Notes under the pieces: generated by a model | Databases searched by the model: none | What the model saw: the letters and a program-made list of their open reading frames with translations, nothing else | What the model was told of the DNA's origin: nothing | Source of the DNA: an uncultured Acidobacteriota bacterium | GTDB taxonomy: Bacteria; Acidobacteriota; Polarisedimenticolia; J045 | Assembly (NCBI GenBank): GCA_963702425.1 | Contig: CAVPCQ010000032.1 | Location: 64,001 to 128,000, forward strand | DNA length: 64,000 bases | Reading direction: 5' to 3' | Shown here: positions 28,738 to 46,020 of the stretch, one piece after another | Layout: every line of letters starts with the position of its first letter | Position numbering within the stretch: the first letter of the stretch is position 1 | Translations under genes and position numbers: made by a program

Positions 28738-28742
28738 CCGCG

Positions 28743-31019
28743 ATGAGGAGCGCCACAGTTTCCACGAGGCCGGCACCGAATTACGCCGCGCAGTTCGAGC
28801 ATGCTCCCGGCCGCCCACCGCCGATCGTCGACGAAGTGCTGCGTTCCTCCGGTGCGTCACTCGACACCCCAACGCGTGCGTACATGGAGCCGCGGTTCGG
28901 GCACGACTTCAGCCGAGTGCGTGTGCACAGTGGCGAAAATGCGGCCGCGTCCGCGTTCGCGCTCGGCGCAGAGGCTTACGCCGTCGGGCGCGATATTGTC
29001 TTCGCCGCGGATGCGTTCGCTCCAGAGACCAGCCACGGACGCGAGGTGCTCGCGCACGAACTAGCGCACACGATTCAGCAGCAAGGCGCCTCCGGCGGCC
29101 CCCCGGTTTCCGTCGGCTCCGGCGGCGGCGGGAAACTTGAGGCCAGTGCCAAAGACGCGGCGCGCACGGCTGCGAACGGCGGAGTCTTGTTGCGTGACCT
29201 GCCCGCCTGCGGCATGCGAATCCAACGTTCACCGGCCCCTGACGAACGTTGGAAGAATGATGTCGGGGCGGCCCGCTACCGCGGGCGATTGGTGGCCCGC
29301 CGAATCCGCAAGCACGGCCTGCTCTCCAAGGAGGCACGCGAAAAAATAAATCAGGAGTTGGCCTACTTCGAAGGTGCGGCCAAACAGACGTATCTGGATG
29401 AAGTGAAGCCAGTCCTGGTGAGAACGGTGGAGACCGAGATGCCGGCCACTTCGGCGAGGCGGGTTCCGAAGGTGCCGGAGATCAGGCTCGATGGTCTTGC
29501 GCCCGACCCCCGGCAGATCTCCGATGAAGAGTTGAAGCGCCCGCAGCGCGAACTCGAACAACGCGAGGGCGCTGAGGAAACAGCGGAGCGAACCGCCGAG
29601 ATTGCAAAGCTAGAGGCCAAGACCGCCGATTGGCCGCGCGAGTACCGCGATTTCGCGGTGGATCTCCTTACGTCCGTGCTCATCCAGGCGAAGAGGACCA
29701 ATATTGACCCGCGTGCGATCTCGGACCGCATTCGTCCGCAGATTCTGCAGAAGTTCCGGCTTTGGCTGGAGAATCAGGACGAGTTGATGAAGGAGGTTTG
29801 CGAACACATGCCGGACGGTGTGACCGGCGCTATTCGCAAGTCGCAGGCAAGGTTCCAACCAGCACTAGATCCCTGTCGGCGGTGGTTTGCTGACGAATAC
29901 AGCCACGGGCCTTCCGAACTGCACGAGCTAGAGAGCCGCCTCCGGCTGAACCGCCTCGATTCGGGTGGGGAAACACCGGCCGAGTATGTCTACTACGACG
30001 TCTTTGAGCTGCTCAAGAAGGTTGATCCACGTCTCCTTCAAGAAGCTGAAGACGCCGCTTCGATGGTCAGCGGCTTGGCCGCGACTGGTGGCGCGAGGGC
30101 GCGAGCAGGTGCAGCCGAGAATCTCGGCGCCACTCAGAGCGGCCGCGCCGGGAGTGCTCTTGCCGAATCCAGATCTCCGACGGTCGAAGCCGGTCCGTCG
30201 CCGAGGCCGGAGCCGGCCCCGCAAGGCGCAAGCGGGGCCCCGTCGGCCACCATCAAGTCTTCTCCGCCGCCGCCGCCGCGGCAGGTGCAGCGGCCCGGCG
30301 CGCCCACACCGGTAACCGACGTCGAGCTCGTCAAGGCCAACATCAGCTCGCCGGACTCGATCAAAGTGAAATCGCCGACGGATCATCAGGTGGAGTGGAA
30401 TGCGCGGGGCGGGCCCGAAACTGCACCACCGGCGTATCGCGACGGCCAGGGGAACGTACATGTCAGCGCCGACCATCCCCTCATGGCGAGTGCAAGCCGA
30501 GGAGGTATTCCACCCGTTTCGTCAGGCGCTCGAAGCCCTGCCGGGCCAACGCCTTCGCGGCCGTCGCCCGACACGCCGCGGGTTGTAGCGATTCCGCGCG
30601 GCGAGGTCGGGACCGCGGACACCGGCCAGGCCCCCGCGCCTGCGCCACCGGCAGTCGATCCGATGGCGGGAACACCCGCTGCTCCGGTACCCGCGCAAGC
30701 GCCGCCCGCTGCGCAAAATGTGGCGCCCGGCGCCCAGACCGGTGCCGCAGGTGCTGCGTCGAGACAGCCGCAGGCGCCGCGTCGTGGCTTTGATCCACCG
30801 CAGCCGGTCAGCCCCGAAGCGGTCGAGAAGATGCGGAGCCGACCGCCTCAGGCCGCCGACCCGCGACGCAAGGGTCGTGGCAGCAACGTTAATTACTCCA
30901 CCAATCACAAAGCCCACGAACTCGCGTGGCGACGGCTCGGCGGCCAAGGCGATTCGTCGCCGCCGGGATTCATCTACGACAACCAGGTGTACCTCGACCC
31001 GTCCCGCTGGTCCCGTTGA
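28743..31019 (+). CDS. DUF4157 (eCIS core domain) protein with Pro-rich linkers and a duplicated C-terminal module
   Basis: MEPRFGHDFSRVRVH, AYAVGRDIVF, AHELAHTIQQ, IQR linker. Confidence 0.8.
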   Translation: MRSATVSTRPAPNYAAQFEHAPGRPPPIVDEVLRSSGASLDTPTRAYMEPRFGHDFSRVRVHSGENAAASAFALGAEAYAVGRDIVFAADAFAPETSHGREVLAHELAHTIQQQGASGGPPVSVGSGGGGKLEASAKDAARTAANGGVLLRDLPACGMRIQRSPAPDERWKNDVGAARYRGRLVARRIRKHGLLSKEAREKINQELAYFEGAAKQTYLDEVKPVLVRTVETEMPATSARRVPKVPEIRLDGLAPDPRQISDEELKRPQRELEQREGAEETAERTAEIAKLEAKTADWPREYRDFAVDLLTSVLIQAKRTNIDPRAISDRIRPQILQKFRLWLENQDELMKEVCEHMPDGVTGAIRKSQARFQPALDPCRRWFADEYSHGPSELHELESRLRLNRLDSGGETPAEYVYYDVFELLKKVDPRLLQEAEDAASMVSGLAATGGARARAGAAENLGATQSGRAGSALAESRSPTVEAGPSPRPEPAPQGASGAPSATIKSSPPPPPRQVQRPGAPTPVTDVELVKANISSPDSIKVKSPTDHQVEWNARGGPETAPPAYRDGQGNVHVSADHPLMASASRGGIPPVSSGARSPAGPTPSRPSPDTPRVVAIPRGEVGTADTGQAPAPAPPAVDPMAGTPAAPVPAQAPPAAQNVAPGAQTGAAGAASRQPQAPRRGFDPPQPVSPEAVEKMRSRPPQAADPRRKGRGSNVNYSTNHKAHELAWRRLGGQGDSSPPGFIYDNQVYLDPSRWSR

Positions 31020-31226
31020 CCTGTCAGCCAGTAGGCACTGCGGTCCTACTTGAGCCGTATCCCCTCGTCCAGGGCGCGCAGGATCGCACCTTTGGTGGTC
31101 GAATCGAGCATCGCGGAGTCCATGGCCGACTCCACCGCTGTCCTTCGCCACGATCCCATCCGCCTGATTCCCAGCCGCCTTGTCAGTGTCGGGTTTCGCG
31201 CGCCGCACGGCCCCGCGCGCAGTCGA

Positions 31227-31940
31227 TCAATAGCCCGTGCAGTACTGGAAGTGCATCGGGTCCTTGTTGCTCCCGGGCCAGTCGCCGCCCCACTTGAAGC
31301 CGTGCTCGCGGAGGATCTGGACGAGGCGAGGATCCATGTCGCCGGCCGTCCCCATCGCGTTCGTGTTGGGATTCAGGTCGAGCGCAATACCCCAGCTGTG
31401 AGTCGACGGCCGGCTGCCCATGCGCTTCGGGCGATAGTTGTAGCAGCCGCCGTAGGTGCGTACTGCGCTGCGCAGGCCCGCGCGGTCGACCGCCTGGAAG
31501 ACCTGCACCATGATCGGCGCCAGGAGCTTGTGGCAACGGATCTTCGTGGCGAGCGGCGCGGGATTGCCCCACGCGAGCCGCATCGGGAAGGGCAATCCGA
31601 CGGAGACCATGTTCGTGCTCTCCCAGCGCGGATCGATCGTGCCGTCGGGCCGGATGAAGCGCCCGATCTCACCGAACGTCGCGAGGATCGCCTCGAGCCC
31701 GTGCGGGGGCAACACGCCCAGCGCGGGTTCCGCGACGCCCTCGACGCCTCGTGCCGCGAGTCGCGGCGGCGCCATCTCGCGCCGGCTCGGCAGCTCGATG
31801 ATCGTGCCGACGGCGGGCTTGCCCCCGCGCAGGTAACCGTTGTAGCCCGCCAAGGCTTTCCCGAGCGCCTCGTCACCGTACTGTGCCTTCGCGACCCGCT
31901 TGAACGTGTCCTTCGAGCGAAACGCATAAGTCTTGGCCAT
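31227..31940 (-). CDS. M15 family zinc peptidase with LysM-like N-terminus
   Basis: GGCYNYR, STHSWGIALDLN, WGGDW...DPMHFQ. Confidence 0.88.
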   Translation of the reverse strand: MAKTYAFRSKDTFKRVAKAQYGDEALGKALAGYNGYLRGGKPAVGTIIELPSRREMAPPRLAARGVEGVAEPALGVLPPHGLEAILATFGEIGRFIRPDGTIDPRWESTNMVSVGLPFPMRLAWGNPAPLATKIRCHKLLAPIMVQVFQAVDRAGLRSAVRTYGGCYNYRPKRMGSRPSTHSWGIALDLNPNTNAMGTAGDMDPRLVQILREHGFKWGGDWPGSNKDPMHFQYCTGY

Positions 31941-32062
31941 GCCTGTCTCCTTCAGTCTGTAGAACGGTCCGCACGGGACGAGACCCGGCACCCGCGTCAG
32001 TTCGGGACTCGGGCCGTTCGCCGGGTTGGCCGGGAGCTCCGCCGGTTCGCCTCGGGGTGGCT

Positions 32063-33145
32063 TCAGGCGAACGCGATCTTGGCCTTCTTGATCAGCGGGT
32101 CCTGGCGCAGCTTCGACAGGATCACCGCGTAGTTCGCCTGCCGGTAGCGACCCGCGAAGTGGAGTCCCACGACTCTCTGCGTCTCGAGGTCGATGACGCA
32201 AGAGCCCGAGTTGCCGCCGAGGGTCGAGCAGTCGTGCTCGAACTCCTTCCGCGCGGCGGCGACCTTGGCGATCTCCCCCGGTTGCAGCCGCTTCACGTTG
32301 TAGATGTCGCGGAAGATCTCGCTCATCGGCGTCGGCTCGTTGCGTCGCCCATCCCACGCCGGGTACCCCACCACGTAGACGCGGCCGCGCGCACGAAGCT
32401 TGGGATTCTCCGCGAGCAGCAGCGGTTCCGGGGCGCGGGCACCTTGGGGGGTTTTCCGGGAGGCCTTCAGGAGGGCCAGGTCGTACGTGTCGTGGATTCC
32501 GATGACTGCGGTGAGTGCGAACTCGGCCGGCTTCTTGGCGCCCAACTCCTCCACATAGTCGATCCGGGCCTTCATGCCGGCCTCGAACGCCCAGCCCGCC
32601 CCTTTCTTCCGACTGAATTCCTTGGCCACGTGGCGATTCGTCATCACGACACCGTCCGCGACCAGGAAGCCTGTGCCGATCCAGTCGAGCGAGGGGTGAC
32701 CGGTGACTTCGATGCGGCCGACGCTGCCGAGCGTCGCCTCGATCCCCTCGCGGTGGGCGTTCAGCACCGTCCACTCCTCCGGCGGGTCCTCGAAGCGTCC
32801 GTTCGTGACGAGAAGGGCGGGGCGACCTTCGAGCAGCACGATGGCCTCGAGCGCCGTCTCTTCGGTTGGGCTGAGGCGAGCGTTGGCCCCGTCCTTGCGC
32901 ACTTTCTCGATCGCCTTTCGACCCTCGCTCGCCAGAATCTCGGCGCGTGCTCCCGGGCCGGCGAGGCGACGCTCGGGACTTGCTTCCGACGCGGCGGCCA
33001 CGCTCTCGAGCATCGGAGCGGGGCTGGGCCGGGTCGCCGTGAGGCGTCGCTCCAACGTTGCGGGATCAACGAGCCGTTCGTAGACGGCAGCCAGGTTCGA
33101 GACCTGGCGCATGGCCCGTGCTGCAACCGACTCCATCTTCGCCAT
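32063..33145 (-). CDS. trypsin-like (V8/Trypsin_2) serine protease
   Basis: GTGFLV, TNRHVA, DLALL, HDCSTLGGNSGS; no signal peptide. Confidence 0.9.
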   Translation of the reverse strand: MAKMESVAARAMRQVSNLAAVYERLVDPATLERRLTATRPSPAPMLESVAAASEASPERRLAGPGARAEILASEGRKAIEKVRKDGANARLSPTEETALEAIVLLEGRPALLVTNGRFEDPPEEWTVLNAHREGIEATLGSVGRIEVTGHPSLDWIGTGFLVADGVVMTNRHVAKEFSRKKGAGWAFEAGMKARIDYVEELGAKKPAEFALTAVIGIHDTYDLALLKASRKTPQGARAPEPLLLAENPKLRARGRVYVVGYPAWDGRRNEPTPMSEIFRDIYNVKRLQPGEIAKVAAARKEFEHDCSTLGGNSGSCVIDLETQRVVGLHFAGRYRQANYAVILSKLRQDPLIKKAKIAFA

Positions 33146-33312
33146 CGCTTTCTCCTGTCTTTCGCCACAGGCCCGTCCGCCCGACTCCTCAACGGCCTGC
33201 GCGCAACGCCACTCTACCGCCGAACGGTCGACGGGAGCGTCCCGACGGCCGCCGAGGCTCCCGCCCTGGTCCGGGGATGAGCCTCCGCCGAGGCCTTCCG
33301 GCGCTGACGGAA

Positions 33313-34503
33313 CTACGGATCCCGCGCGCACCGGAACCCGATGTCCTCGCTCCGGAGATCCGGCATTCCGTGGAATCGTTTCGTAGCGACGAGTCGTTCG
33401 CCAGGGTCGAAGCGCCCGCCGCCGCGTATCACCCGACCGGTTCCGGTTTCCGGCCCCTTCGGATTGCGCACGTCGCCCACGGGGAAGCTGTCCGAGTACC
33501 AGTCGGAGACCCATTCGGACGCATTGCCGGCAAGATCGTGGACGCCGAACGGACTGAGACCGGCAGCGTGCGCACCCACCTTGGCGAGACCGCCGTCGTA
33601 GGCTTCGGGCGACGCGTTCTGGTAGTTCGCATGATCGAGCGTCGGCGACGCGTCGCCCCAGGGATAGCGACGGGCGTCGGTGCCGCGCGCTGCCTTCTCC
33701 CACTCTGCATCGGTCGGCAGGCGTCGGCCGGCCCACTTGCAGTAGGCCGTCGCGTCGTTCCAGTCGACACCGATCACGGGAAGCTCGTCACCGCGACTGA
33801 GATCGAGCGCTTCCCAACCGTCCGGCGGGTGTGAAGACCCGGTGGCGGCGAGGAACCTCCCATAGCGGCCGGTGGTGACTTCGTACCGATCGATGTAGAA
33901 CGCATCGAGGTAGACCTCGCGGCGCGGGGACTCCTCATCGTCCCCCATCGTGAAGTTCCCCGCCGGAACGAGCACGGCGGGAGCGCCGTCCGTGCCGGTG
34001 ATCTCCGAGGCCGGAGCTCCGGGCAAACGCACAAACCAGACGACTGCCGTAATCAGCGCGGCCACCGCGATGCCCCCGGCGACCTTCCATTGGGTCGCGC
34101 GGCGCCGGCGGCGCGCGATGCGATGCACCGCATCGGCCACGGCGGCGGGGATGTTCCCCGGCGAGTCGAGCACCGTCACGGACTTCAGGAACGGCGGCAG
34201 CCGGTCGACCGCCGTGGGCCGCAACAGCACCGGCAGCAACCGCCCGGACGCCTGCTTGAGGTTCTTCTCGGCGACGTCGAGTTCGTTCAGCGTGTAGCTG
34301 CCCGGATCGATCGCATCCTCGCTCACGAGGAACACGAACAGGCCCGCCTCCTCGATCGCGCGCCGGATGCGGATGTGGAATTCCTCGCCGGGCGGCAGAT
34401 CCTCGCGGTCGAAGAACACATCGTGTCCCTGTTCGAGCAGCGCCCGGTTGATCGACTCCGCGAGCGGGCGGTCCTGGGAGGCGTAGCTCAGGAAGATCTT
34501 CAT
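33313..34503 (-). CDS. TIR domain + TM + FGE-sulfatase (SUMF1) domain protein
   Basis: KIFLSYASQDR, SYTLNEL; TM helix; RLPTDAEWEKAARG, DLAGNASEWV, GFRC. Confidence 0.9.
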   Translation of the reverse strand: MKIFLSYASQDRPLAESINRALLEQGHDVFFDREDLPPGEEFHIRIRRAIEEAGLFVFLVSEDAIDPGSYTLNELDVAEKNLKQASGRLLPVLLRPTAVDRLPPFLKSVTVLDSPGNIPAAVADAVHRIARRRRRATQWKVAGGIAVAALITAVVWFVRLPGAPASEITGTDGAPAVLVPAGNFTMGDDEESPRREVYLDAFYIDRYEVTTGRYGRFLAATGSSHPPDGWEALDLSRGDELPVIGVDWNDATAYCKWAGRRLPTDAEWEKAARGTDARRYPWGDASPTLDHANYQNASPEAYDGGLAKVGAHAAGLSPFGVHDLAGNASEWVSDWYSDSFPVGDVRNPKGPETGTGRVIRGGGRFDPGERLVATKRFHGMPDLRSEDIGFRCARDP

Positions 34504-34628
34504 GTCGACACGTTCTCGCCCGTCATGGACTGGGTGCAGCGGGACGTTCCGCCCGCCACGCGCGCAGGGTCCAGGCAGGACTCGCGAAGTCCTTCACCGA
34601 ACTCGCCGATGCCACCAGCACCGGACCG

Positions 34629-35726
34629 TCAGCGCAGTCGCGGGGATCCATTCAGCTCCAGCCAGCTCCGGATGTCGGTCGCGTCCGGGTTTTCCATGAC
34701 CTGCTCCCAATCCGCGTCGAGCTCGCGACGTGCCTGCCGGAGCGCCTCGACCACCGCGGCGCGCGTCGCGGCATCGGCTGGCTGTCGCGCGGCATACTGC
34801 GCGTCCAGGCTGATCAGGCAGAGCGCCCGGCTGTACTGGTAGAATCGCCCTTCCTCTACGCGATCCCCTCGCAGCATCACAGCGTGGGTGAGGCTCTGCA
34901 GGGCACCCTGCCAGTCCGGCGTCAGCTGGTCCTTCAGGGCGTATCCGAGGTTCCCGTGTGGCGCATGCCACTTGGGATCGGCGCGAACCAGCGCCTGGAA
35001 CACGGGGATCGTGCGCTCCATCTGGTGCTTGTCCGTGAACCAGTTCTCGCGGCGCACGTCCTGGGCCATGTTGAAGATCGCGGTCCGCACTTGGCGGCTG
35101 GCCCGGAGCACGGCGGCGGAGAGGCGCCTCGCGTCCGGCTTGTCCCCGCCCGTGTCCCCGAACAGCTGGCGGTAGCAAAGCAGCAACGCGATTTCTCCGA
35201 TCTTCGACTGCGGGGTGGTGTCGGTGATCTCGGTCGACGCGGTGCCATCCCCGCCGTAGAGCAGCTCGAGCTGGCGACTGAACTGCCACTGCAGATCCTC
35301 GGTGTTGCGGTAGTACGTGGGGTAGTGCTCGAGCGCCTGGAGCCTGGTCTTGAAGTCCAGGAGGCTCTTGACGTTCTCGTCGAGATCGCCCGTGAGGACG
35401 AAGTCGTTGCGGAAGTAGGTGTAGATCTGCGGCCCGGTGCCGGCCTTGAGGTCGGCGAAAGCGGTCTCGAACTCCTCCAGGGTGTAGCGCCCGACCTTGG
35501 TGAAGAAGAGCATCACGAAGATGTCGCACTCCTGGACGGCCTTGTCGTACTCCTTCTGCAAGCCTTCCTTCGACATCGCGTCGACGAAGTTCTCCCAGAC
35601 CACGAGCTCGAAGGTGATGTCCCGCGGTCGCCATTGGGGGTTGAGGCGCGCGAGCATGAGTTCGAACGAGCGCCGGTCGTCCTTCAGTTCTTCGGACGAC
35701 GCGAGGAAGATTTTCTTCACCTGCAT
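34629..35726 (-). CDS. DUF4062/TIR-like N-terminal domain + helical (TPR-like) C-terminus
   Basis: KIFLASSEELKDDR, QECDIFVMLFFTKVGRYTLEEF. Confidence 0.7.
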   Translation of the reverse strand: MQVKKIFLASSEELKDDRRSFELMLARLNPQWRPRDITFELVVWENFVDAMSKEGLQKEYDKAVQECDIFVMLFFTKVGRYTLEEFETAFADLKAGTGPQIYTYFRNDFVLTGDLDENVKSLLDFKTRLQALEHYPTYYRNTEDLQWQFSRQLELLYGGDGTASTEITDTTPQSKIGEIALLLCYRQLFGDTGGDKPDARRLSAAVLRASRQVRTAIFNMAQDVRRENWFTDKHQMERTIPVFQALVRADPKWHAPHGNLGYALKDQLTPDWQGALQSLTHAVMLRGDRVEEGRFYQYSRALCLISLDAQYAARQPADAATRAAVVEALRQARRELDADWEQVMENPDATDIRSWLELNGSPRLR

Positions 35727-35919
35727 GGCGCCTCGACCTGGCTCGTGGGGAGGAGAGGTCCTTTCAGCCCGCGTTCCAAAGCGGGACGAGGGTAGCACCG
35801 GCAGGTTCGGAGCGGAGCCCCGCCGGCGTCGTCGGGTCCTGGCACAGTGGGCCTCCCGGTCCTGGCCGCCTGTGACTCGGCATATCTCCGTCCGCGTTGC
35901 CGCTCAGAAAATCACATTC

Positions 35920-36075
35920 CGACGAGCTACTGCGCCGAGTTTTCGCTCTGGACGCCCTCCGCTGCCCGCGCTGCTCGTCCCGCATGGAGGTCCTGGCCCG
36001 GCTCCACCCGCCCGATACGGCCCGCGCGATCCTCGACTGCCTCGGGCTCGCCGCCCGTGCCCCGCCCCGCTACAG
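35920..36075 (+). mobile_element. IS91-like transposase C-terminal remnant
   Basis: ELLRRVFALDALRCPRCSSRMEVLARLHPPDTARAILDCLGL..RAPP; related copy at about 39635-39745. Confidence 0.6.
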
Positions 36076-37341
36076 TCCCGCCGTCCCCGGGTTGAGCCGC
36101 GCGCGATCCATGAGCTCCACCAGGTAGCTGCGCGCCAGCCGCGCGTTCAGCGCCGCCTTGTCCATCACGTCCACCCGGTCCGCCGGCTCCGATGCCAGGG
36201 GCCCCGGTAAGCGCCGAACCACCGGGATGTAGTCCCCCGGGTAGTCGAGCAGGCGCAGGATGTCGACCACCGAGGCGCGCTGCAGGTCGGCGATGCGGAG
36301 TGGCTGCCGCAGCATGGCTTCGCCGAACCATCGCCGCAGCAGGTCCGCCGTGACGTCCACCTTGGCCTGCATCTCGCTCTGCGGGAACGGCATCCCGAAG
36401 GCCCCCTGCCAGAGCTGCAGGATGTCCTGGATCTCCGGGTCGAGCAGGGTGAACGCGAGCGGGCGCTGGCGCAGCTGCGCCTCGAACGCCGCGAGGGCAG
36501 GGACCATCGGCCGGATGGTCGACAGGATGGTCCCGGTGGACACCTGGCCGACGAAGCGCTCACTGCGCGGCCCCGGCGCGGCCCCGCGGGAGTCCACGAT
36601 GAGGATGCGGCGAACGCCCGTGAATCGCTCGGCGAGCGCCGCGATCAGGAAGAGCCGCGTTGACCACCAGGTCGTCGCGAGGTCGATCTTGAGGGCACGC
36701 TGCGTGTCCCCGGCCTCGGTGATGGCCCGCTGGATGCCAAACGAGGCACTGCTGTCGCCGGCCACGCCGGTCGCCGCGTCGAGCGTCGTGGCGGGCTGCA
36801 GGTCCAGCTGGTTGGTGAGCCCCGTCATCGTGATCGCCGCACTCACGCGCGCCTCGAGGTCCGACGGCGTCGTAAACCATGCCACCACGCGCTCCTGTTG
36901 CAGCGCGGTCCGGAGCGTGCGGATCCTCGTCGTATCCGGCTCGCTGCCCACCAGCCCCCGGTCGAACCCGTCAACCAGGCGCGGCGACCAGGGATAGCCC
37001 TCCTCCAGGAGGAAGGCGAGGATCGGGAGCTTCCGGTCCTTCGCCTTGAGGTACTCGTAGTGCGTGATCGAGGTACCGCCCGCTACGGCGCCCGGCACGG
37101 CAGGTGCCGGAGACACGCCCGGGGCCGCGGCCGGCGGCACGTAGCCGTAGCGCCAGGCGAAGATCCCGACGTATGCCTCCGCGCGATCCACCATTTCCAG
37201 CACCTTGGAGAGCGGGGCGGTGGCGCCGGCGGTCATGTCCTCCATGGCGAGGACCTCGTGGCCGAGCTGCCGCAGGATGCGGATGGCGGCGGCGCGGTGC
37301 TCCTGCAGGTCGACAAACGACGATGAGACGAAGACGCGCAT
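36070..37341 (-). CDS. DUF4062 domain protein
   Basis: MRVFVSSSFVDLQEHR, YVGIFAWRYGYVP, SITHYEY. Confidence 0.85.
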   Translation of the reverse strand: MRVFVSSSFVDLQEHRAAAIRILRQLGHEVLAMEDMTAGATAPLSKVLEMVDRAEAYVGIFAWRYGYVPPAAAPGVSPAPAVPGAVAGGTSITHYEYLKAKDRKLPILAFLLEEGYPWSPRLVDGFDRGLVGSEPDTTRIRTLRTALQQERVVAWFTTPSDLEARVSAAITMTGLTNQLDLQPATTLDAATGVAGDSSASFGIQRAITEAGDTQRALKIDLATTWWSTRLFLIAALAERFTGVRRILIVDSRGAAPGPRSERFVGQVSTGTILSTIRPMVPALAAFEAQLRQRPLAFTLLDPEIQDILQLWQGAFGMPFPQSEMQAKVDVTADLLRRWFGEAMLRQPLRIADLQRASVVDILRLLDYPGDYIPVVRRLPGPLASEPADRVDVMDKAALNARLARSYLVELMDRARLNPGTAGL

Positions 37342-37564
37342 GGTCGATTCCTCGCGAGGGGCTGCCTCGAAGCTAGCACGGGTGGGGGCGAGCGGACACT
37401 GGATGATCCCCGCGCCCGTTCTTGACGGCCTCAAACGAATGCGCGCGACGCCTGAAAGCTATCCGACCCTCCCGGCATCTCCTGATGTGCCTCACCAGGC
37501 TCGGCAGCGCTGGCCTCGGCGCATGTTCGCTTGCCCAACCGCGTTCCGGGAGTCCTGACGCGGC

Positions 37565-38360
37565 CTACATCGCCACCTTGAGCCTCGACAAGTCCGCCCG
37601 CGAGATGAACCCCGCGGCCGCACCGAACCAGATCATCCGCGTCTGCCGGTCGTAGACCATGTGCCGCACCGTGTTCCGGTCGCCGGGAATCTCCGTCACG
37701 TTGAAGAACGCCTGCGTCTTCGGGTCGAACCCCACCAGGCGGTTCGGGCGCGCCGGGTTCGCCTCGGCGACCCACACCCGGTCGCGCTCGTCGATCGTCA
37801 TCCCGTACGGCAGCGAGTTCGCCCCGCCGGGGAGCGCCCACTCGTCCACCTTCCCCGTGGCGGGGTCCGGCCGGCCGAGATAGCCGCGCGTGTAGTCGGT
37901 GTAGCAGAGCTTGTCGTCAGAGGAGATCGCGATGCGGCGGTCGCACGTGCGCTCGTTCCCTAACGGGTACGTCGTGAGCTTGAGCCTCGCGGGGTCGAGG
38001 GTCCCGATGGTATTCGTGCCGAAGAGGTCGAACCACGGGTGCCCCTTCGAGTCCATCGCGATGCCATAGCGGCGCGAGCCGGGCTGCGGCATCTTCACGG
38101 GACGGAACTGCTTCGTCGTGACGTCGAGGTGCCCCGCCACGTTCTAGTTCTGGGCGGTGAACCAGATGTTCCCCTGCTTGTCCCACACCATGGTATCCGG
38201 GTCGCGCACGCCATCGGGGATCTCGAAGCGCGTGACCTCGCCCGTGCGGGGATCCAGCCGGCCGGTGGTGCCGTTGGTGTTTCCCGGGTACGACACCATT
38301 CCCTTCGCGTCCACGACGTAGCTGTGGGGATGGGCGTTCTCGTCGCTGCCCTTCCCGCTT
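37565..38360 (-). pseudogene. virginiamycin B lyase (Vgb)-like beta-propeller, 5'-truncated with in-frame TAG at 38144-38146
   Basis: Repeats HPHSYVVDAKG, DKQGNIWFT, YGIAMDSKGHPWF, PYGMTIDERDRVW; two in-frame ORFs separated by one amber codon. Confidence 0.75.
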
Positions 38361-38428
38361 GAAGGTCCTGACGCTGTCCCCACAAATGGCGAATTCGAGT
38401 TCGAGGCCTCCCTGCCGCGGCCGCCGGC

Positions 38429-38659
38429 GTGTGGGCGCGCCGCTTTGGGGTCTCGGAGCGCCAGTCGCGCCGCTACGCCGAGCAGGCGCGCGACGGGGGC
38501 ACGCAGGCCGTCCCGCCGCCGAAGGTCGTCTTCACGGTCAAGCTGCCCGCCGACGCCGTGCGACGGGTCCGGCAGCGGGCGAGAAGTCGGCGGCAAGCGC
38601 TCAGCGCTCTCGTCGAGCAGGTTCTCGCGGACTTCTTGTCCGCGGATCCGGCTGGATGA
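38429..38659 (+). CDS. small HTH/ribbon-helix-helix-like protein upstream of the recombinase (probably 5'-truncated)
   Basis: ARRFGVSERQSRRY...VVFTVKLP...LSALVEQVLADFL. Confidence 0.5.
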   Translation: MWARRFGVSERQSRRYAEQARDGGTQAVPPPKVVFTVKLPADAVRRVRQRARSRRQALSALVEQVLADFLSADPAG

Positions 38660-38784
38660 CGTGGCGGCGGCTCGACGCGTCGCGATCGAGTACGTCTTCG
38701 ACCGGCTGGGCCGGCTGCGCCTCGCCGAGACTGACGAGCTTCTCGTTCCCGAGCGTCGCCGGAGGACCGACGGAGGACAGGATC

Positions 38785-39610
38785 ATGCCGTGTGCAGCGC
38801 TCTACGCACGAGTCTCGACGCTGGGTCAGAAGGAGGAGGAGACGATCGCCAGCCAGACCGCGGAGCTGAAGGAGCAGGCGCGGTCGGCGGGCCTGATCGT
38901 ACCGCCCGAGTGGGTGTTTGAAGACGCGGAGTGCTCGGGTTCCACGCTGATCCGGCCGGCGCTCGAACGGCTTCGCGATCTGGTCGTCCAGGAGCGCGTC
39001 GACGTGATTCTCTGTCACGCGCCGGACCGGCTGGCTCGGCGCTGCGCCTGCCAGGTGCTGCTGATGGAGGAGTTCGCGCGCACCGGGACCGAGGTCCGGT
39101 TCATCAAGGCGCCGCCGACCGCTACATCCGCAAGGGACCGGACAGCCCGGCGCGCTACGAGATCGTCGAACACGACGCACGGATCGTGCGGGAGTTGTTC
39201 CGGCGGTACGCGGAGGGACGGACCTCGCCGCGCGCATTGGGGCGGTGGCTGACCGAGCGTGCGATCCCGACGGGAGCGGGCAGGGCGTTCTGGGACCAAT
39301 CGACGGTGGCTCAGATCCTGCGCAATCCCGCCTGCCGCGGGTGTGTGGCCTTCGGCCGGAGGGCGCCGGTGGACGACCCGCCGCGGGTCACGCCTTCGCG
39401 CCGTCTGGCCGGTGCAAAGGCCGCGCGGCGCTTCGACGACATCCGGCGCTTCTCGGCTCGCCGCACGAAGGAGCCGTGCGAGGCGGCCGCCGGCACGTTG
39501 GTCCTCGAACGCCAGCGCGTCGTCCGACTCGTCGTCCGGGACGTCCTCGTGGACACCGACACCGTGGTCATTCGGCACACGATCCCCGGACTGGACTCGG
39601 GCGGACGACC
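38785..39610 (+). pseudogene. large serine recombinase remnant
   Basis: ALYARVST, SGSTLIRPALERL, DRLAR; frameshift/deletion near 39120; then recombinase-domain WDQSTVAQILRNP. Confidence 0.8.
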
Positions 39611-39634
39611 CGTTTGCCGCTCGTGGGGACCCCG

Positions 39635-39745
39635 TGTTGGCCCAGATCCACCCGCCCGACACCGCCCGCGTGATCCTCGACTGCCTCGGGCTGGCCTCCC
39701 GTGCCCCGCCCCGCACGCCGGCCCGCGCCGAGCCGGACTCGCTCC
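39635..39745 (+). mobile_element. second IS91-like C-terminal remnant
   Basis: VLAQIHPPDTARVILDCLGLASRAPP, near-identical to 35990-36070. Confidence 0.55.
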
Positions 39746-40203
39746 CCTTTCCCGCCAACACCGCCGCGGACTGAACTCCTGGACGAACGCCCCGGCCCAC
39801 GCGGGTCCTGACCACCTGGAGGGTGGATCTCCGCCGCCATGGCGGCCCTCCGCGCGTCCCATCCGGGGCCGCTCTCGCCGCCGCGCAGCGCTCGACCACG
39901 CTCCATCCACGCGGCCGGCCGTTCCCGCCGCTGGCGGCGCACCGACTTCGGCTGGCGTGTCATGAACGCGGCACTCCAGCTGCGCTACCGGGAGTTCCCA
40001 GCCTCCTTCGCTGCGGCGGCTTGAATCTGCTGCCCACTTCTCTTCGGTATGCGGAGAAGTTACAAAGCAATGATTTATCTTCCGGCCGGGGGTGAGTTGC
40101 CCGGGAGGCTTGTCCGCGAAGTCTGCCACGTCCACCACGACGCGTATCGCCGGGCGAACCCCGCCTGTTCGGCGTACGCTCCCCCTCATGAAAGGGGAAA
40201 GAC

Positions 40204-41952
40204 ATGCAAACTCCCAAGGATGGTGGCAAGCCCAAGAATGGTGGAATGCCCGGCAGAAAAATCGAAGTGGGCTCCTTCCGCGGAAAGGAGGTGACGTTCC
40301 TCGCACGCCGGCTGGTGATCCAGCTGGCGGCGTCGGAGGATGAGAAGTTGCTCATGGAATCCGTGGCGACCCTGATGGCCAAGGCCAAGGGCGCACGCGT
40401 GATGCGCGGGCCGAGTGCCACAGGTCGGATCCTGGTCATGCTGCCGGAAGGCCAGAGCGTGATCGAATGGGCCGCACGCTTCTCCGACGAGCGCGCCGTC
40501 GCCTACGCCGAGCCGGACATGCTGGAGCGGCTCCAGATCGTGCCGAACGACACACTGTACTCGAGCCAGTGGAGTCCGGGGATGGTGAATGCGGAGCAAG
40601 CCTGGGACCTCGAGACCGGCAAGACCAATGTGATCATCGGGATCATCGACTCCGGGATCTCCATCACCGGCGGGGCACTGGACCATGACGACCTCAACAC
40701 GCCGGGGCGCTTCGTCCTGGGGACGGACTTCGTGGATGGGGGCACGCCTCGCGACCTGAACGGCCACGGCACACACGTGACGGGGATTGCGGCAGCGATG
40801 GGCGACAACGGCACTGGGATCGCGGGGATGAACTGGGGATCGCAAGTATACATCTGTCGGACGTTCGATGCGGGAGGGAACGGCAGCTCGGCGGACTTTG
40901 CCGACGCCGTCGAGGAGATCACGGATTTCGCCGTGGCCAACGGGCTGAAGGCAGTGATCAACTACAGCGGCGGCGGCGTGGACAACCAGACTAAACAAGA
41001 CGCCGCCACGTACGCGTCGAACAACGGGATGCTCCTGGTTGCGGCGACCGGCAACGACAACGGCGGACCGGTGATCTTCCCGGCCGCGTATTCGACCACG
41101 ATCACGGGAGTCATCGCGGTCGGATCGACGGATTCCAACGACACCGTCTCGGGATTCTCGAACGTTGGACCCGAGGTGACCGTGGTGGCGCCGGGCGGCG
41201 ACATCCTATCGACGACGCCAACCTACAACGTGACCCTCTCGGGCCCGCCGGCCAACCTCGCGCTCAACCACGGCAACCTGAGCGGAACTTCCATGGCGAC
41301 GCCCATGGTCACTGGGTTGGCGGCCTTGATGTGGAGCCGGCACCCCAGCCACACGAATCAGAAGGTCAAGCAGTGCCTGATCGACACGGCCGTCAAGCTG
41401 GGCTCGGGGAACTTCGACAACAGCTGGGGCTTCGGCCGAATCGACGCGTACGCCGCACTCAAGTGCGGAGACTGGATCATGCCCTCGAAGCTAATCCTCT
41501 GCAAGTCGAGGCTGGTCCTCTGCACGTCGAAGCTGAGCACTTGCAGGACGCAGCTGTCCGTCTGCAAGTCGAAGCTGACCATCTGCAGCTCGCAGCTGGT
41601 AATCTGCAAATCGCAGTTGACAGTCTGCAAGTCGCAACTGACGCTCTGCGGAAAGTCGCAGTTGGTTCTCTGCCCAACCAAGTCGTTCCTCGATGCCTGC
41701 CCGGTCAGGTCGGTCCTGGCGGCCTGCCCTTCAGCGGTGGACGCGTGCCCGTCGACGCCCGGAGGATGCGAGTTCGTCGACCCGAGAGAACTTCTGGTCG
41801 ACCCGCTCATCCGGATCGCGGGACTTGAGTACCGGCTTCAGGAGCTCAAGACGGAGCTGTGGTACGGTGCGGGCGCGGCCAAGGCGCCCGATGCCGGCGA
41901 CGACGACGGTTGGTTCGTCCTCGACGACGGTGGCAATATCCACCTCATCTAA
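40204..41952 (+). CDS. S8 subtilisin-like peptidase (propeptide + catalytic domain) fused to a Ser/Cys-repeat putative lanthipeptide precursor tail
   Basis: Propeptide ending YAEPD; triad IIDSG / NGHGTHVTG / SGTSMATP; oxyanion Asn AATGND; then 13 x (S/T)X4C. Alternative start at 40246. Confidence 0.9.
   Translation: MQTPKDGGKPKNGGMPGRKIEVGSFRGKEVTFLARRLVIQLAASEDEKLLMESVATLMAKAKGARVMRGPSATGRILVMLPEGQSVIEWAARFSDERAVAYAEPDMLERLQIVPNDTLYSSQWSPGMVNAEQAWDLETGKTNVIIGIIDSGISITGGALDHDDLNTPGRFVLGTDFVDGGTPRDLNGHGTHVTGIAAAMGDNGTGIAGMNWGSQVYICRTFDAGGNGSSADFADAVEEITDFAVANGLKAVINYSGGGVDNQTKQDAATYASNNGMLLVAATGNDNGGPVIFPAAYSTTITGVIAVGSTDSNDTVSGFSNVGPEVTVVAPGGDILSTTPTYNVTLSGPPANLALNHGNLSGTSMATPMVTGLAALMWSRHPSHTNQKVKQCLIDTAVKLGSGNFDNSWGFGRIDAYAALKCGDWIMPSKLILCKSRLVLCTSKLSTCRTQLSVCKSKLTICSSQLVICKSQLTVCKSQLTLCGKSQLVLCPTKSFLDACPVRSVLAACPSAVDACPSTPGGCEFVDPRELLVDPLIRIAGLEYRLQELKTELWYGAGAAKAPDAGDDDGWFVLDDGGNIHLI
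41485..41769 (+). repeat. 13 tandem coding repeats (21-27 nt) encoding (S/T)-X4-C
   Basis: Examples TCGAAGCTGACCATCTGCAGC / TCGCAGCTGGTAATCTGCAAA / TCGCAGTTGACAGTCTGCAAG. Confidence 0.95.
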
Positions 41953-41973
41953 GTCAAGCAGGAGGACTGTGGT

Positions 41974-43005
41974 GTGAGTGAACTGGGACTGGCCCGGCGG
42001 GCTGCGCGATTCGTGATCACACGTGGGTTGATCTCGCACGAGGAGGTCCATCGCTACGGGATCCGAGCCCGGGACCTATCCCAGTCCAACGGCGTTGCGC
42101 TGGTCGAGTCCGGCAACGGACGAGGCTTCGTGGCGAAGGATATGAGGCCGACGCGCTCGGGGGACCAGGGTTCCCCCGAGCGCGAACTCGGCCTCTACCG
42201 GGCCATCTCGGGCCGGAAGGAGCTCGAGGCCTTCACGCCGCGGTTCCATGGGTACGACGACGGGGAACACATCCTGCTCATCGAGGGCCTTTCGTCGTCT
42301 CGGCGCCTCGATCAGCTCGGCGGCGGGCGAAGCGTGCTGGATCCTGAACTAGCGGGTCGGGTCGGCGCGGCCTTGGGTCTGTGGCACCTGCGTGCGGCGG
42401 CGCTGGACGGTCTGGATCGAGCCGTGATCTGGTTCCTCGGCATCGACGGCGAGAACCGCCTGGCCGTACTCGATGCTGATGCGCGTCTGCGCGAGCTCAC
42501 CCTGAAGATCCTCTCCGACCCAGAGTTGAAGAAGTGCCTGGTGCGCGTGCGTGCCCACTGGACGGACGAGACGGTGATCCACGGCGATGTGCGCTTCGCC
42601 AACGTCATGGTCTGTCCCGCACCGCAAGTCGTTCGCTTCATCGACTGGGAGACCAGCGGGATGGGCGATCCGGCCTGGGACGTGGCGGGCGGCGTCCAGG
42701 AGTATCTGAGCGTAGGGATCGCGGGCGGACATCCGCTGGAGAGTTCGCCGGCCGGAGATCCGGTGGAGGCGTTCCTCAGGCGCTACCGGGAGACGTCTCG
42801 CAGCTCGATGCCGTGGTCGCGCTTCGCGCCCTTCGTCGCGTGCCGCCTGATGATGCGGGCGCTGCAGCTGACGTTGTGGGATGGGGACGCACGGGAGGCG
42901 ACCGAGCAGCACCTGAAACTGGCCGCAGAGATCGGCACAAGGACGGAAAGTCCGTTCGAGCGCGTTCCGCAGGACGACCCGGCACTCCAGTCCACGGACC
43001 AATGA
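41974..43005 (+). CDS. APH/phosphotransferase-family kinase (LanK-like)
   Basis: FVAK, IHGDVRFANVMV, FIDWE, GDPAWDVA. Confidence 0.85.
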   Translation: MSELGLARRAARFVITRGLISHEEVHRYGIRARDLSQSNGVALVESGNGRGFVAKDMRPTRSGDQGSPERELGLYRAISGRKELEAFTPRFHGYDDGEHILLIEGLSSSRRLDQLGGGRSVLDPELAGRVGAALGLWHLRAAALDGLDRAVIWFLGIDGENRLAVLDADARLRELTLKILSDPELKKCLVRVRAHWTDETVIHGDVRFANVMVCPAPQVVRFIDWETSGMGDPAWDVAGGVQEYLSVGIAGGHPLESSPAGDPVEAFLRRYRETSRSSMPWSRFAPFVACRLMMRALQLTLWDGDAREATEQHLKLAAEIGTRTESPFERVPQDDPALQSTDQ

Positions 43006-43937
43006 TCAGCGCCATGCACGGCGATCTCCTCGAAGCGGCTGAGTGGTTGGTCGACCAAACCCTACGCCACGAGGCAGCGAACGAGGGTCCTGACGAGCTG
43101 GCGCTCAGGCTCTACGATTGGTACCTGAATACGTCGCCGCTGCCCAAGCCCACGGGTCCACTGCTCCCCTATGAGCTCAACCTGCCGGCTGCCGTGCGCG
43201 GTGCACACCATGAAACGCCCCGCTTCGAGGGCGGATGGAAGGCGCAGACCGCTTCATCGTGGGGGCGGGTGGTGGCGAACAAGGGAGACGAGACCCGAGT
43301 GCTCGAGCGCAGCGAGTATACGGTTCCCGGCCGACGTGGGTTGCGCGCCCAACACGGCGACGCTCTCCTCGTCTCCCGCTGCTGGGACTGGGTCGACGAG
43401 GAGACCGGATTCTGGCACTACAGGCGCGGGACCTGGCCTCCCCCCGGAGCGGACCGCCTCGTCCGGATCTATTGGAACTGTGTGCCTGCCGAGGCTCCGC
43501 GCGTCATTGCGCAGGTGTCCCTGGTTCTGGGCGCCGCGGCCGATGTCCCGTTCATGGTGAAGACCCCCGCGCGATCCGATCACAACGGACGCGCGGACGC
43601 CGTCGTGAGCTACCTGGGACCCGATGGGTATTCGAGATTCGAGTGCGAGCTCCGAGCGACCGCGGAGTCGCTCGCTGTGTGCCTGCGGCCGCAGACTCCG
43701 CGAATGACGCATCGGCTGGCCCCCGGAGTAGCCCTCACCGAAGGCAAACTGGGCGGAGACAGCTTCGGCGATGTGCGTTGCCGACTCTTGGCCGATACGT
43801 TTTGCGAGGCAAGCGCCGAGGCTCGCCGCTCGGTGCCGCAGCTTGTGGAGAGGATCGGTGCAGACTTCCGAGCGACGGGCCTGGACCCCGCACGCCCATA
43901 CCTCGAGCCAGGGCCGGTTCGTGACTACGACGGTTGA
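43002..43937 (+). CDS. HopA1-like protein (LanY-like phospho-lyase)
   Basis: LVRIYWN, PFMVK, RADAVVSY, GDSFGDVRCRLLA, GLDPARPY; ATGA overlap with the kinase stop. Confidence 0.75.
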   Translation: MISAMHGDLLEAAEWLVDQTLRHEAANEGPDELALRLYDWYLNTSPLPKPTGPLLPYELNLPAAVRGAHHETPRFEGGWKAQTASSWGRVVANKGDETRVLERSEYTVPGRRGLRAQHGDALLVSRCWDWVDEETGFWHYRRGTWPPPGADRLVRIYWNCVPAEAPRVIAQVSLVLGAAADVPFMVKTPARSDHNGRADAVVSYLGPDGYSRFECELRATAESLAVCLRPQTPRMTHRLAPGVALTEGKLGGDSFGDVRCRLLADTFCEASAEARRSVPQLVERIGADFRATGLDPARPYLEPGPVRDYDG

Positions 43938-45408
43938 CTACCTGGCGCTCGCGGGCGGCATCGCGAATCGGCTGTGCGACGAGGCCATCCGCAGCCAGGG
44001 GCGCGCGACGTGGCTCGGCGACGAGAAGGAGAGTTTCGACGGAAGCTGGGAGGTCGTTTGCAAGACCGTCGACGGAGACCTGTACGGTGGCACGGCCGGA
44101 ATCGGCCTGTTCCTCGCCCGGATGGCCGCCGCGACGAAGGACCCTCGTTACCGCACCACAGCGCTCGAGGCCTTGGCCCACGCGACGGAGTGGACGCGGC
44201 GCACTCGATCCCTGGGCACGCTCTACGGCGGAGCGGCGGGCGTAGCAGCTGAGCTGGCGGAAGCCGGAAGGCTGCTCGATGAGCCGGGATTGACGGACGA
44301 GGCCTTTCGTGTCGCAGGCGAGAGCATCGACCACCCACCTCAGGGGGCGAACGACTTGATCTCCGGCCGGGCGGGGTCGATCGTCGCGCTTCTGCACCTC
44401 GCGCGGACGTTGCCCTTCGACGCCGCGTTGGAAGCAGCTCGCGAGCTCGGCGAGCAGATCGTGAAGGCCGCTGTGGGAACGCCATTCCCGGGCGCTGCCT
44501 GGCCATCGGACATCGGGCCGAACGAGCCTCCCCTGTGCGGACTCTCGCACGGTGCCTCGGGTATCGCCTGGGCCCTGGAGGAACTCGCGCTGATCACCGG
44601 AGAGCAACGCTACAGCCAGGTTGCTGCTTCCGCGGCCGCCTATGAACGGGCCTGGTACCAGCGGGAGGAGGGGAACTGGCCGGACCTCCGAGAGTTCACT
44701 CGCGCCAAGCTGGCGCGCGGCGAAGCCCCCGGCTTCCCGATGTTCTGGTGCCACGGTGCCGTCGGGATCGGTCTGGTGCGCCTGCGCCAATTCGAATTGA
44801 CCGGGGAGACGGTCTACGCCGTAGAGGCCGAAGCTGCCATGATGTCCGCCGAGAAACAGATCGCAGAGGTCTTCGAGGCACCGCGAGTCGACCTATCCCT
44901 GTGCCACGGTGTGGCTGGATTCGCTGAACTGTTCCTCGAGGGGGCTCGGGTCTTCGCACAACCGCTCTTGCGTGAGAAGGCGCTGTCCTGCGTCGACTTG
45001 GCGGCGCGCTGTGGGCAAGACGGGGCAGGGCCGTGGCCGTGCGGCATCCCCGACGGTGGCGAGAACCCCAGCCTCATGGTCGGGCTCGCGGGTATCGGGA
45101 TGATGTTCCTCAGAGCGGCCGATTCCAGCGTGCCTTCGGTGGGCCTGCCCTATACTCTACCGATCATGATTCCCCGATTGATCGTCCAGCTCAAAGTCAC
45201 CGAATCGCCGGCCGACCTGCAGGCTCGCGCAGCCGAGGTCGCCGCACTTCTGCCCGGCAGCCGCATAGAACGGATCTCTCGGCGCGGGCGCGTCCTCATT
45301 CGCCTACCCGCGGGTGCATCCGCAGAGTCTGCGGCACGATCGCTTTCCGGCCGCCAGGGAGTGGAGTACGCCGAACCCGACGCCGTGGACCACCAGACTG
45401 GCGAGTAG
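43921..45408 (+). CDS. LanC-like lanthionine cyclase with C-terminal subtilisin-propeptide-like domain
   Basis: LYGGTAGI, GLSHGASGI, WCHGAVG and SLCHGVAG (Zn ligands), LMVGLAGIG; about 80-aa tail ending VEYAEPD. Confidence 0.9.
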   Translation: MTTTVDYLALAGGIANRLCDEAIRSQGRATWLGDEKESFDGSWEVVCKTVDGDLYGGTAGIGLFLARMAAATKDPRYRTTALEALAHATEWTRRTRSLGTLYGGAAGVAAELAEAGRLLDEPGLTDEAFRVAGESIDHPPQGANDLISGRAGSIVALLHLARTLPFDAALEAARELGEQIVKAAVGTPFPGAAWPSDIGPNEPPLCGLSHGASGIAWALEELALITGEQRYSQVAASAAAYERAWYQREEGNWPDLREFTRAKLARGEAPGFPMFWCHGAVGIGLVRLRQFELTGETVYAVEAEAAMMSAEKQIAEVFEAPRVDLSLCHGVAGFAELFLEGARVFAQPLLREKALSCVDLAARCGQDGAGPWPCGIPDGGENPSLMVGLAGIGMMFLRAADSSVPSVGLPYTLPIMIPRLIVQLKVTESPADLQARAAEVAALLPGSRIERISRRGRVLIRLPAGASAESAARSLSGRQGVEYAEPDAVDHQTGE

Positions 45409-45468
45409 GGTTTCGAAGGCGTTGTTGGCTAGATGCATCAAAGAGGCAGGAGTGTGCCTGGCCACTAC

Positions 45469-46020
45469 CCCGTCCGCCTTGCCCTTCAACGAGTTGCGTT
45501 CCGATGCAGGAGATCCGGATCGCCATCATTCAGCCCGCAACCGTCATTCGCTGGCATCGCAAAGGTTTCAGACGGTACTGGCACTGGAAGTCGCGGCGCC
45601 ACGCTGGACGCCCGACCTCAACGGCCAATACCCGCGCTCTCGTCCACCTCATGGCGGCCGAGAATCCGTCGCGGGGCGCGCCGCGATCTCCTCGACCACG
45701 TCATCGTCCTCAACGAGAAGCACCTGCAGCGCCTTGTGGCCTGCTTCGCCTCGTACGGCCTCGACAACCGGACGCACTTGTCCCTGAAGAGGGATGCGCC
45801 CGCGATGCGAGCCGTGGAGTCGAGCCCGCATCCAGCCGCCGAGATCATCGCTCGACCTCGCCTCGGCGGGCTTCATCATCGCTACGCTTGGCGCCGCGCG
45901 GCTTGACGATTCCGCTCGACCCGTCCACCGCCGCGGCCTCGTCGTGGAGCGGCTGTGCCTTTGTGGAAGGCAGACCGTCGCCATCTCTGTCAACCGATGG
46001 GCATGACCGTCCCCGACACA
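45469..46020 (+). mobile_element. degenerate integrase-core IS remnant, copy 2 (inverted relative to 27190-28235)
   Basis: IIQPATVIRWHRKGF, HVIVLNEKHLQRL, RLGGLHHRY; shared flank CCGTCCGC.TTGCCCTTCAA.GAGTTGCGTTCC. Confidence 0.75.

Follow-up and report, generated by a model that had tools for sequence, protein, structure and literature searches.

We analysed a 64,000-nt stretch of DNA (contig CAVPCQ010000032.1, positions 64,001 to 128,000; hereafter the window) from an uncultured Acidobacteriota bacterium, and in particular an S8 subtilase gene whose product carries a Cys-rich repeat tail, together with the genes for a kinase, a lyase and a LanC-like cyclase that follow it. To judge from sequence and gene content, the 13-unit stretch of the tail is most likely the core (substrate) region of a self-contained, four-gene lanthionine cassette. 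All positions are those of the whole window, and the cassette lies on its (+) strand. Its features, with the evidence for each in brackets, are the following:

40204..41952 (+): S8 subtilase gene, 582 aa, with repeat tail (open reading frame; Pfam Peptidase_S8, E 2.5e-48, residues 141-411)
40276..40545 (+): subtilase prodomain, approximate limits (alignment to the LanC C-terminal domain, BLASTP E 2e-11)
41485..41769 (+): proposed core (substrate) region, thirteen [S/T]-x4-C units (translation, Tandem Repeats Finder, coil in the AlphaFold2 (AF2) model)
41770..41949 (+): Cys-free follower, 60 residues (conserved residues; AF2 tail model)
41974..43005 (+): stand-alone APH-fold kinase, LanK-type (Pfam APH PF01636, E 5.2e-16)
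43002..43937 (+): HopA1-type phospho-Ser/Thr lyase, LanY-type (Pfam HopA1 PF17914, E 8.5e-21)
43771..45408 (+): LanC-like cyclase with an appended prodomain copy (Pfam LANC_like PF05147, E 1.3e-51, residues 100-453)
45178..45381 (+): LanC C-terminal domain, homologous to the subtilase prodomain (Pfam Fervidolysin_NPro-like, E 4.7e-08, residues 470-537)

The repeat array and the protease that carries it

The translation of 41485-41769 (+) consists of 95 residues, identical to those quoted in an earlier description of this DNA made from the letters alone (the sequence-only reading), and it holds, as stated there, thirteen consecutive and non-overlapping [S/T]-x4-C units, corresponding to residues 428-522 of the 582-aa open reading frame. 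The linkers between units are 1 residue (10 times), 2 residues (once) or 3 residues (twice) long. Position 1 of the unit is encoded by TCG (11 units), TCA (one) or ACG (one) and position 6 by TGC in 13/13, position 3 is Leu in 11/13 and position 4 uses 13 different codons. When the 95 residues were shuffled 20,000 times with their composition kept, no shuffle contained 13 [S/T]-x4-C matches, the maximum being 11, reached once. However, the units are tandem duplicates, hence the 13 units are not independent events. The 21-nt tandem expansion that had been claimed was recovered by Tandem Repeats Finder at 41498-41649 (period 21, 7.2 copies, 72% matches), which also reported periods 42 and 63 on the same array.

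An independent contig from a public sediment metagenome run (X1) covers positions 41462-41971 and spans the whole array. It is about 1-2% divergent from the window across the cassette, and over this interval it differs by 4 letters and by an in-frame 21-letter insertion behind 41630 which, read in frame, is one additional S-x4-C unit. The array is no assembly artefact, and its copy number shifts by whole units between strains, since the related strain has an extra in-frame 21-nt unit. A joint of 41447 to 43516 in a second run (X2), with 20 letters on its short side and a depth of 2.3, was set aside as a probable artefact.

The array is not a free-standing peptide, as it lies within a longer open reading frame and is followed by 60 further residues. 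Precisely, the protein consists of an N-terminal prodomain, the Peptidase_S8 domain, the repeat array and the Cys-free follower. The score of 165.3 bits with PF00082 places it in the S8 family, and the catalytic residues D149, H188 and S363 are invariant among 8 aligned orthologues. Among NCBIfam models the S8 domain matched mycosin best, at 158 bits against a cut-off of 279, and not a LanP model; PADLOC gave a generic subtilase match only. By eye, no hydrophobic signal peptide is visible at the N-terminus.

The full-length AF2 model of the subtilase (8 alignment rows) was poor, with a mean predicted local distance difference test (pLDDT) value of 40.2 that includes the S8 domain; only the prodomain was confident (pLDDT 73-87), and the model was uninformative on the tail. 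A model of the tail by itself (13-row alignment) represented the repeats as coil at pLDDT <50. In this case the follower was the sole confident part, being predicted as a helix (approximately residues 534-557; block-mean pLDDT 71 and 83) and a terminal acidic beta-hairpin (88 and 76). The hairpin terminates in a conserved W-F-x-x-D-D-x-G-x-x-H motif, of which W150, D154, D155 and G157 (numbering of the tail query) are invariant in the 13 rows. A tail fragment from another locus (L060:3-446) contains a follower-type motif (aromatic-aromatic-x-D-D-x-G) twice, which suggests, from the sequence, that this motif is a modular recognition element.

Downstream enzymes, relatives of the tail and surroundings of the locus

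The kinase gene begins 22 nt after the stop codon of the subtilase gene. Its product scored 59.6 bits with the APH model (cut-off 23.2), and its translation displays the stretches H-G-D...N and I-D-W-E, which we take to be APH-type kinase motifs. The start of the lyase gene overlaps the kinase stop as ATGA; the lyase scored 75 bits with HopA1 (cut-off 22.7), and this is the single HopA1 match in the whole genome. The LanC start is either the ATG at 43771 or the in-frame GTG at 43921, both of which overlap the lyase gene. LanC scored 175.7 bits with LANC_like, its best solved relative is LicM2 (PDB 6st5, E 3.4e-20), and the two proteins line up in their SHG, WCHG and LCHG motifs, so that the window has a separate LanC with zinc-ligand motifs.

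In class V lanthipeptides, dehydration is attributed to a stand-alone LanK (PF01636) and a stand-alone LanY (PF17914), and subgroup Vb is defined by the use of LanC (PMC12291118). The enzyme set of the window matches class Vb by family content, because PF01636, PF17914 and LanC occur as stand-alone neighbours. They are three separate genes, rather than the LanKC or LanL fusions of classes III and IV. As for class I, LanB (PF04738) was not found in the genome, a weak negative given that the genome is 91% complete and that control genomes gave no match either, and LanB is not among the four conserved genes of the cassette. On sequence grounds, the enzymes fit class Vb and the precursor does not: in place of a leader-plus-core peptide there is the tail of the 582-aa protease as the one candidate with Cys that is conserved.

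The C-terminal domain of LanC and the prodomain of the subtilase share 27/74 residues (36%) in the BLASTP match and were placed in a joint alignment (A3). This prodomain copy was present in 8/8 loci of the protease type with a complete LanC, and in 0/16 loci of the other carrier type described below; the most divergent copy, at locus L046, was still recognised by hhalign with a probability of 95.7%. We read this co-variation with the protease carrier as probably reflecting a docking device. A complex prediction of the S8 catalytic domain with the prodomain copy reached a score of 0.89, but one control reached 0.71.

Relatives of the tail were collected in two ways. A HMMER scan with residues 421-582 as the query against 1.84 billion representatives (E up to 1e-3) returned 94 proteins, among them an orthologue of the same architecture (P0002) and fragments of others (P0047, P0059). 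Eukaryote-like, low-complexity phmmer matches (P0003, P0007, P0012, P0013) were set aside as repeat-composition matches, and a word-based search with the tail found the window's own protein only. Moreover, 185,579 species genomes and the JGI metagenomes were scanned with tail motifs only, the enzymes being no part of the selection of loci. Each collection gave 24 loci, and since 7 metagenome loci were near-identical to genome loci, 41 non-redundant loci remained.

The kinase gene came next in 31/32 non-redundant loci with at least 1.2 kb downstream, and the full series kinase, lyase, LanC was present in 22/23 of those with at least 4.2 kb. As the loci were fetched by tail motifs alone, this linkage of tail and enzymes owes nothing to a search by enzyme. 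It gives strong genetic support to the proposal of the sequence-only reading, made there without use of the neighbouring genes, that the S/T-Cys pairs are meant for lanthionine rings. The named records span at least six phyla (Planctomycetota, Chloroflexota, Actinomycetota, Acidobacteriota, Gemmatimonadota and Bacteroidota). What the window has in common with the related loci is limited to the four cassette genes, among which there is no other conserved substrate.

The one exception to the gene order, L031 (a Cyclobacteriaceae metagenome-assembled genome; 416-11440), is a lanthipeptide cluster of class I that encodes a C39-ABC exporter, LanC, HlyD, a split LanB and four precursors with pinensin leaders. 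One of these (1261-1548; 95 aa; pinensin-family leader NF038180, 47.4 bits against a 24-bit cut-off) has a core that ends in C-P-S-A-V-D-A-C-P-S-A-P-G-G-C, the motif at the end of the window tail. Because a class I cluster has it too, this end motif is tied to the lanthionine machinery of two dehydratase types.

The protease-borne form was found at eleven further loci, whose S8 domains are 60-70% identical to that of the window and of which the named ones belong to Planctomycetota and Actinomycetota. A different S8 lineage (L058:1308-4073 and P0026), about 35% identical over the aligned part, also has a tail of Cys repeats that shows the same end motif and whose C-terminus is acidic and aromatic; a kinase and a lyase gene follow.

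In the second precursor family the repeats follow an N-terminal domain that is unannotated and about 110 aa long (P0004, P0005, P0011, P0014, P0015, P0052, P0069) and are much longer: 100-550 residues with 10-58 Cys and with Gly-rich spacers and tails. It relies on the same trio of kinase, lyase and LanC. Its loci were found in Pyrinomonadaceae (L017, L021, L023-L026, L030, L035), Roseiflexaceae (L014) and Gemmatimonadota (L020, L034, L036), as well as at L029 and L032. In both carrier families the repeat modules end in C-P-S-A-V-D-A-C-P-S-A-P-G-G-C or close variants. The N-terminal domain matched no Pfam or NCBIfam family, gave only spurious PDB matches and had atlas neighbours below the recognition mark; compared with the prodomain profile, it gave a hhalign probability of 0.2%, hence no relation. 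A separate S8 gene, 25-27% identical to that of the window, lies on the minus strand 0.7-3.7 kb after LanC at L017, L022, L023, L024 and L026, so a subtilase may be a regular partner even when unfused.

The relatives allowed us to examine the pairing of Ser/Thr with Cys. The sequence-only reading had considered the Ser-to-Cys spacing as invariant and thirteen units as an unusually high count. The spacing is invariant in the window gene only: Ser/Thr stood at -5 for 46% of 78 Cys in seven orthologous protease tails (shuffle 21%) and for 52% of 551 Cys in 16 proteins of the second family (shuffle 16%), and among relatives the distance from the first Ser/Thr to the next Cys ranges from 3 to 6 or more. 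Nor is the count exceptional, with 9-14 Cys in the orthologous tails and as many as 58 in the second family. An alignment of homologous tails, which had been proposed as a check, hence bore out copy-number variation (9-14 Cys and the extra 21-nt unit) and not spacing conservation. The loss of Ser/Thr at -5 in homologues, named in advance as telling against the rings, did occur at about half of the Cys, and yet Ser/Thr was kept in every inter-Cys segment. In fact, counting inter-Cys segments of 5-11 residues, at least one Ser/Thr was present in 12/12 segments of the window gene, in 71/71 of the orthologues (shuffle mean 57, maximum 64 in 1000) and in 494/494 of the second family (shuffle mean 330, maximum 356), that is 577/577 overall and across phyla.

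The surroundings of the cassette concern its origin. Directly upstream lies the following feature:

38359..39965 (+): serine recombinase split over two frames, a likely edge of an acquired island (Resolvase PF00239, Recombinase PF07508)

The Resolvase domain is in the frame of 38359-39252 and the Recombinase domain in the overlapping frame of 38931-39965, and the gene is probably frameshifted. The guanine-plus-cytosine (GC) content is 63% over the subtilase gene (window 40000-41999) against 67-73% in the flanking kilobases. Among 401 sampled genomes of the same phylum the tail profile was present in one, the source genome itself, and 60 relatives of the genome contained S8 domains of at most 41% identity, with no tail and no orthologue. 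The four shared genes, the recombinase, the GC content, the 1/401 occurrence in the phylum and the 0/60 among relatives point to a horizontally acquired, self-contained cassette. A single-query LanC search of genome contigs gave 79 pattern matches, none of which was confirmed. Farther upstream (28569-37434) there is a defence-like block of genes for an eCIS-core-domain protein, an M15 peptidase, a trypsin-like protease, a TIR plus FGE-sulfatase-fold protein and a DUF4062 protein. The open reading frames just after LanC (45314-45906) had by eye the look of transposase remnants; Pfam gave no match and we make no claim on them.

Proposed modification of the tail and alternatives

We consider it likely (probability about 0.7) that kinase and lyase dehydrate the tail and that LanC closes up to 13 thioether rings on it, the tail being still part of the protease. 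The APH-fold kinase would phosphorylate the Ser/Thr of each unit, the HopA1-type lyase would eliminate the phosphate to give dehydroalanine or dehydrobutyrine, and the zinc-type LanC would add each Cys thiol to a dehydro residue, yielding the up to 13 rings. In the window gene, the simplest pattern would be 13 consecutive i to i+5 rings. The protease body, with the helix and hairpin of the follower, would serve as the recognition handle instead of a leader peptide, and LanC would probably be brought to its substrate by the appended prodomain copy. The data themselves show the order and coupling of the genes, their domain families and catalytic motifs, the conserved association of tail and enzymes, at least one Ser/Thr per Cys and changes of copy number by whole units; every chemical step, the ring pattern, the docking and the fate of the tail are what we infer.

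Several points weigh against this interpretation. The best NCBIfam match of the kinase, LxmK (NF038156), reached 47.7 bits against a cut-off of 315, so that the kinase is not a member of the LxmK equivalog. Non-overlapping i to i+5 rings cannot be assumed, because the rings of mSmoA, the modified peptide of the known class Vb system, are described as overlapping, and Ser/Thr at +2 after the preceding Cys, about as frequent among relatives as Ser/Thr at -5, permits other ring patterns. The shuffle controls overstate significance, because kin and tandem paralogues are not independent, and the AF2 alignments are so shallow (8 and 13 rows) that a disordered tail is weak evidence. Among the related loci the cassette has no conserved exporter or immunity gene, and the subtilase has no signal peptide by eye. 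Finally, the chemistry is read from sequence for every member, and the sequencing runs listed for the locus include no RNA run.

As to the fate of the tail, for which the sequence-only reading had named one product or several, we incline to its retention on the protease rather than its release. A possible but tentative extension of the proposal, to which we give well under even odds, is that lanthionine chemistry acts here as a protein modification: a cytoplasmic subtilase would bear a permanent, protease-proof rod of about 13 rings, docking of the LanC prodomain on the catalytic domain would replace the leader, and the same trio would serve the second family, with up to 58 Cys, in at least six phyla.

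It is unlikely, in our estimation, that the tail is instead a multi-core precursor in which the fused protease acts as a built-in LanP, cutting at Lys/Arg linkers and freeing cationic lanthipeptides of one or two rings. Lys/Arg does precede 10/13 units (7/8 single-residue linkers among units 1-9, and GK, PTK and PVR), the catalytic triad is invariant in the 8 orthologues, subtilisin-like leader peptidases are described as standard in lanthipeptide clusters (PMC7268733), and a separate S8 gene lies downstream, on the strand opposite to LanC, at the 5 loci of the other carrier type mentioned above. However, the basic linkers are not conserved, as the orthologous tails mostly have Pro after each Cys; single six-residue rings would be unusually small as products; and the related loci conserve no exporter for them.

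Somewhat less likely again is another thioether pattern, with overlapping or reverse-direction rings, or with intermolecular links that would build a cross-linked protein material. The overlapping rings of mSmoA are reported to need the cyclase (PMC11186320, PMC12328550), Ser/Thr at +2 after a Cys is about as conserved as at -5, and relatives that combine Gly-rich spacers with up to 58 Cys have a likeness to structural proteins. In the window, however, the linkers vary from 1 to 3 residues while the Ser-to-Cys distance stays 5, and this constancy points to the pairing of each Ser with the following Cys.

Cys-rich repeats often bind metals or form disulfides, and the seven-residue period with Leu at position 3 in 11/13 units could recall a heptad coiled coil; yet a disulfide- or metal-bound stalk or a coiled coil, with the three enzymes acting elsewhere, is very improbable, for it gives no role to the 577/577 rule, leaves the 22/23 linkage unexplained where no alternative substrate is conserved, would, as disulfides, stay in a reducing compartment without a signal peptide, and, as a coiled coil, does not agree with the Pro after most Cys of the orthologous units (10-13% of tail residues) or with the AF2 coil at pLDDT <50 from a shallow alignment.

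Should the rings be formed on the protease-attached tail as proposed, several consequences would follow. Lanthipeptide enzymes are usually seen as acting on short leader-plus-core peptides, and here a full-size and seemingly active protease carries the putative substrate as its tail, where the unit count varies in whole steps of 21 nt, even from one strain to another. Exactly where the substrate is protease-borne, the cyclase has gained a copy of the protease prodomain, and prodomain docking instead of a leader would be a new principle of substrate recognition for the enzymes of peptides that are made by the ribosome and modified after translation (RiPPs). The tail would represent a natural scaffold, of use for engineering, on which many small thioether rings are strung like beads, and would offer a route into a large unannotated Cys-repeat family of Acidobacteriota, Chloroflexota, Gemmatimonadota, Planctomycetota and Actinomycetota. 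Under the tentative extension given above, such "lanthio-proteins" would form a widespread and unrecognised class.

Comparison with known systems

The closest system described is SmoK/SmoY/SmoC acting on SmoA (class Vb), which, like the window, has its APH-fold kinase, HopA1-type lyase and LanC as stand-alone proteins (PMC12328550, PMC11186320, PMC12291118). Lanthionine is the sole cross-link of that system, as it would be for the window, and neither LanD nor LanX is present in either case. The modified peptide mSmoA, given as the sole class Vb member as of 2024, has overlapping rings (PMC11186320). SmoA is a leader-plus-core peptide giving a three-ring stapled product, whereas the substrate proposed for the window is the 13-unit tail of a 582-aa protease; the folded follower and the LanC prodomain copy are extra features of the window, in a comparison made by description only.

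The class Va pairs (CaoK/CaoY of cacaoidin, LxmK/LxmY, and TvaC/TvaD of the thioamitides) belong to the same two Pfam families as the kinase and lyase of the window, and dehydration by CaoK/CaoY was reconstituted in vitro (PMC9486802). In the same source, class Va clusters are described without LanC and with LanD and LanX for the formation of aminovinyl-methylcysteine (AviMeCys), whereas in the window LanC is present. LxmK is the best NCBIfam match of the window kinase, yet far below its cut-off as given above.

Outside class V, the pinensin-type class I clusters of Bacteroidota (NF038180 leader; PMC7268733) share with the window the two-ring end motif, through the precursor of L031. Unlike the window, that cluster relies on split-LanB dehydration, on a 95-aa precursor with a classical leader and on an exporter. 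Among the cyclase domains of class II LanM and class IV LanL enzymes, that of LicM2 (LanM) has the motifs aligned with those of the window LanC, and the scores of the latter, for the cyclase part only, remain below the cut-offs (TIGR03897, 245.9 bits against 304; NF038150, 131.1 against 650; NF038151, 85 against 575). As for the protease, the LanP subtilisin leader peptidases (LanPA, PMC7268733) are likewise S8 proteases of lanthipeptide clusters, and differ in that, in the window, protease and substrate are one polypeptide.

A literature search retrieved no description of a protease-fused or tandem-repeat class V precursor, though Pei et al. (JACS 2022), on the SmoK/SmoY/SmoC system, could list such precursors. 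On this comparison, the enzymology is of a known type, class Vb, and what is new, relative to the literature covered, is a putative substrate of tandem repeats carried on a protease, a LanC that bears a prodomain, and a second, large family.

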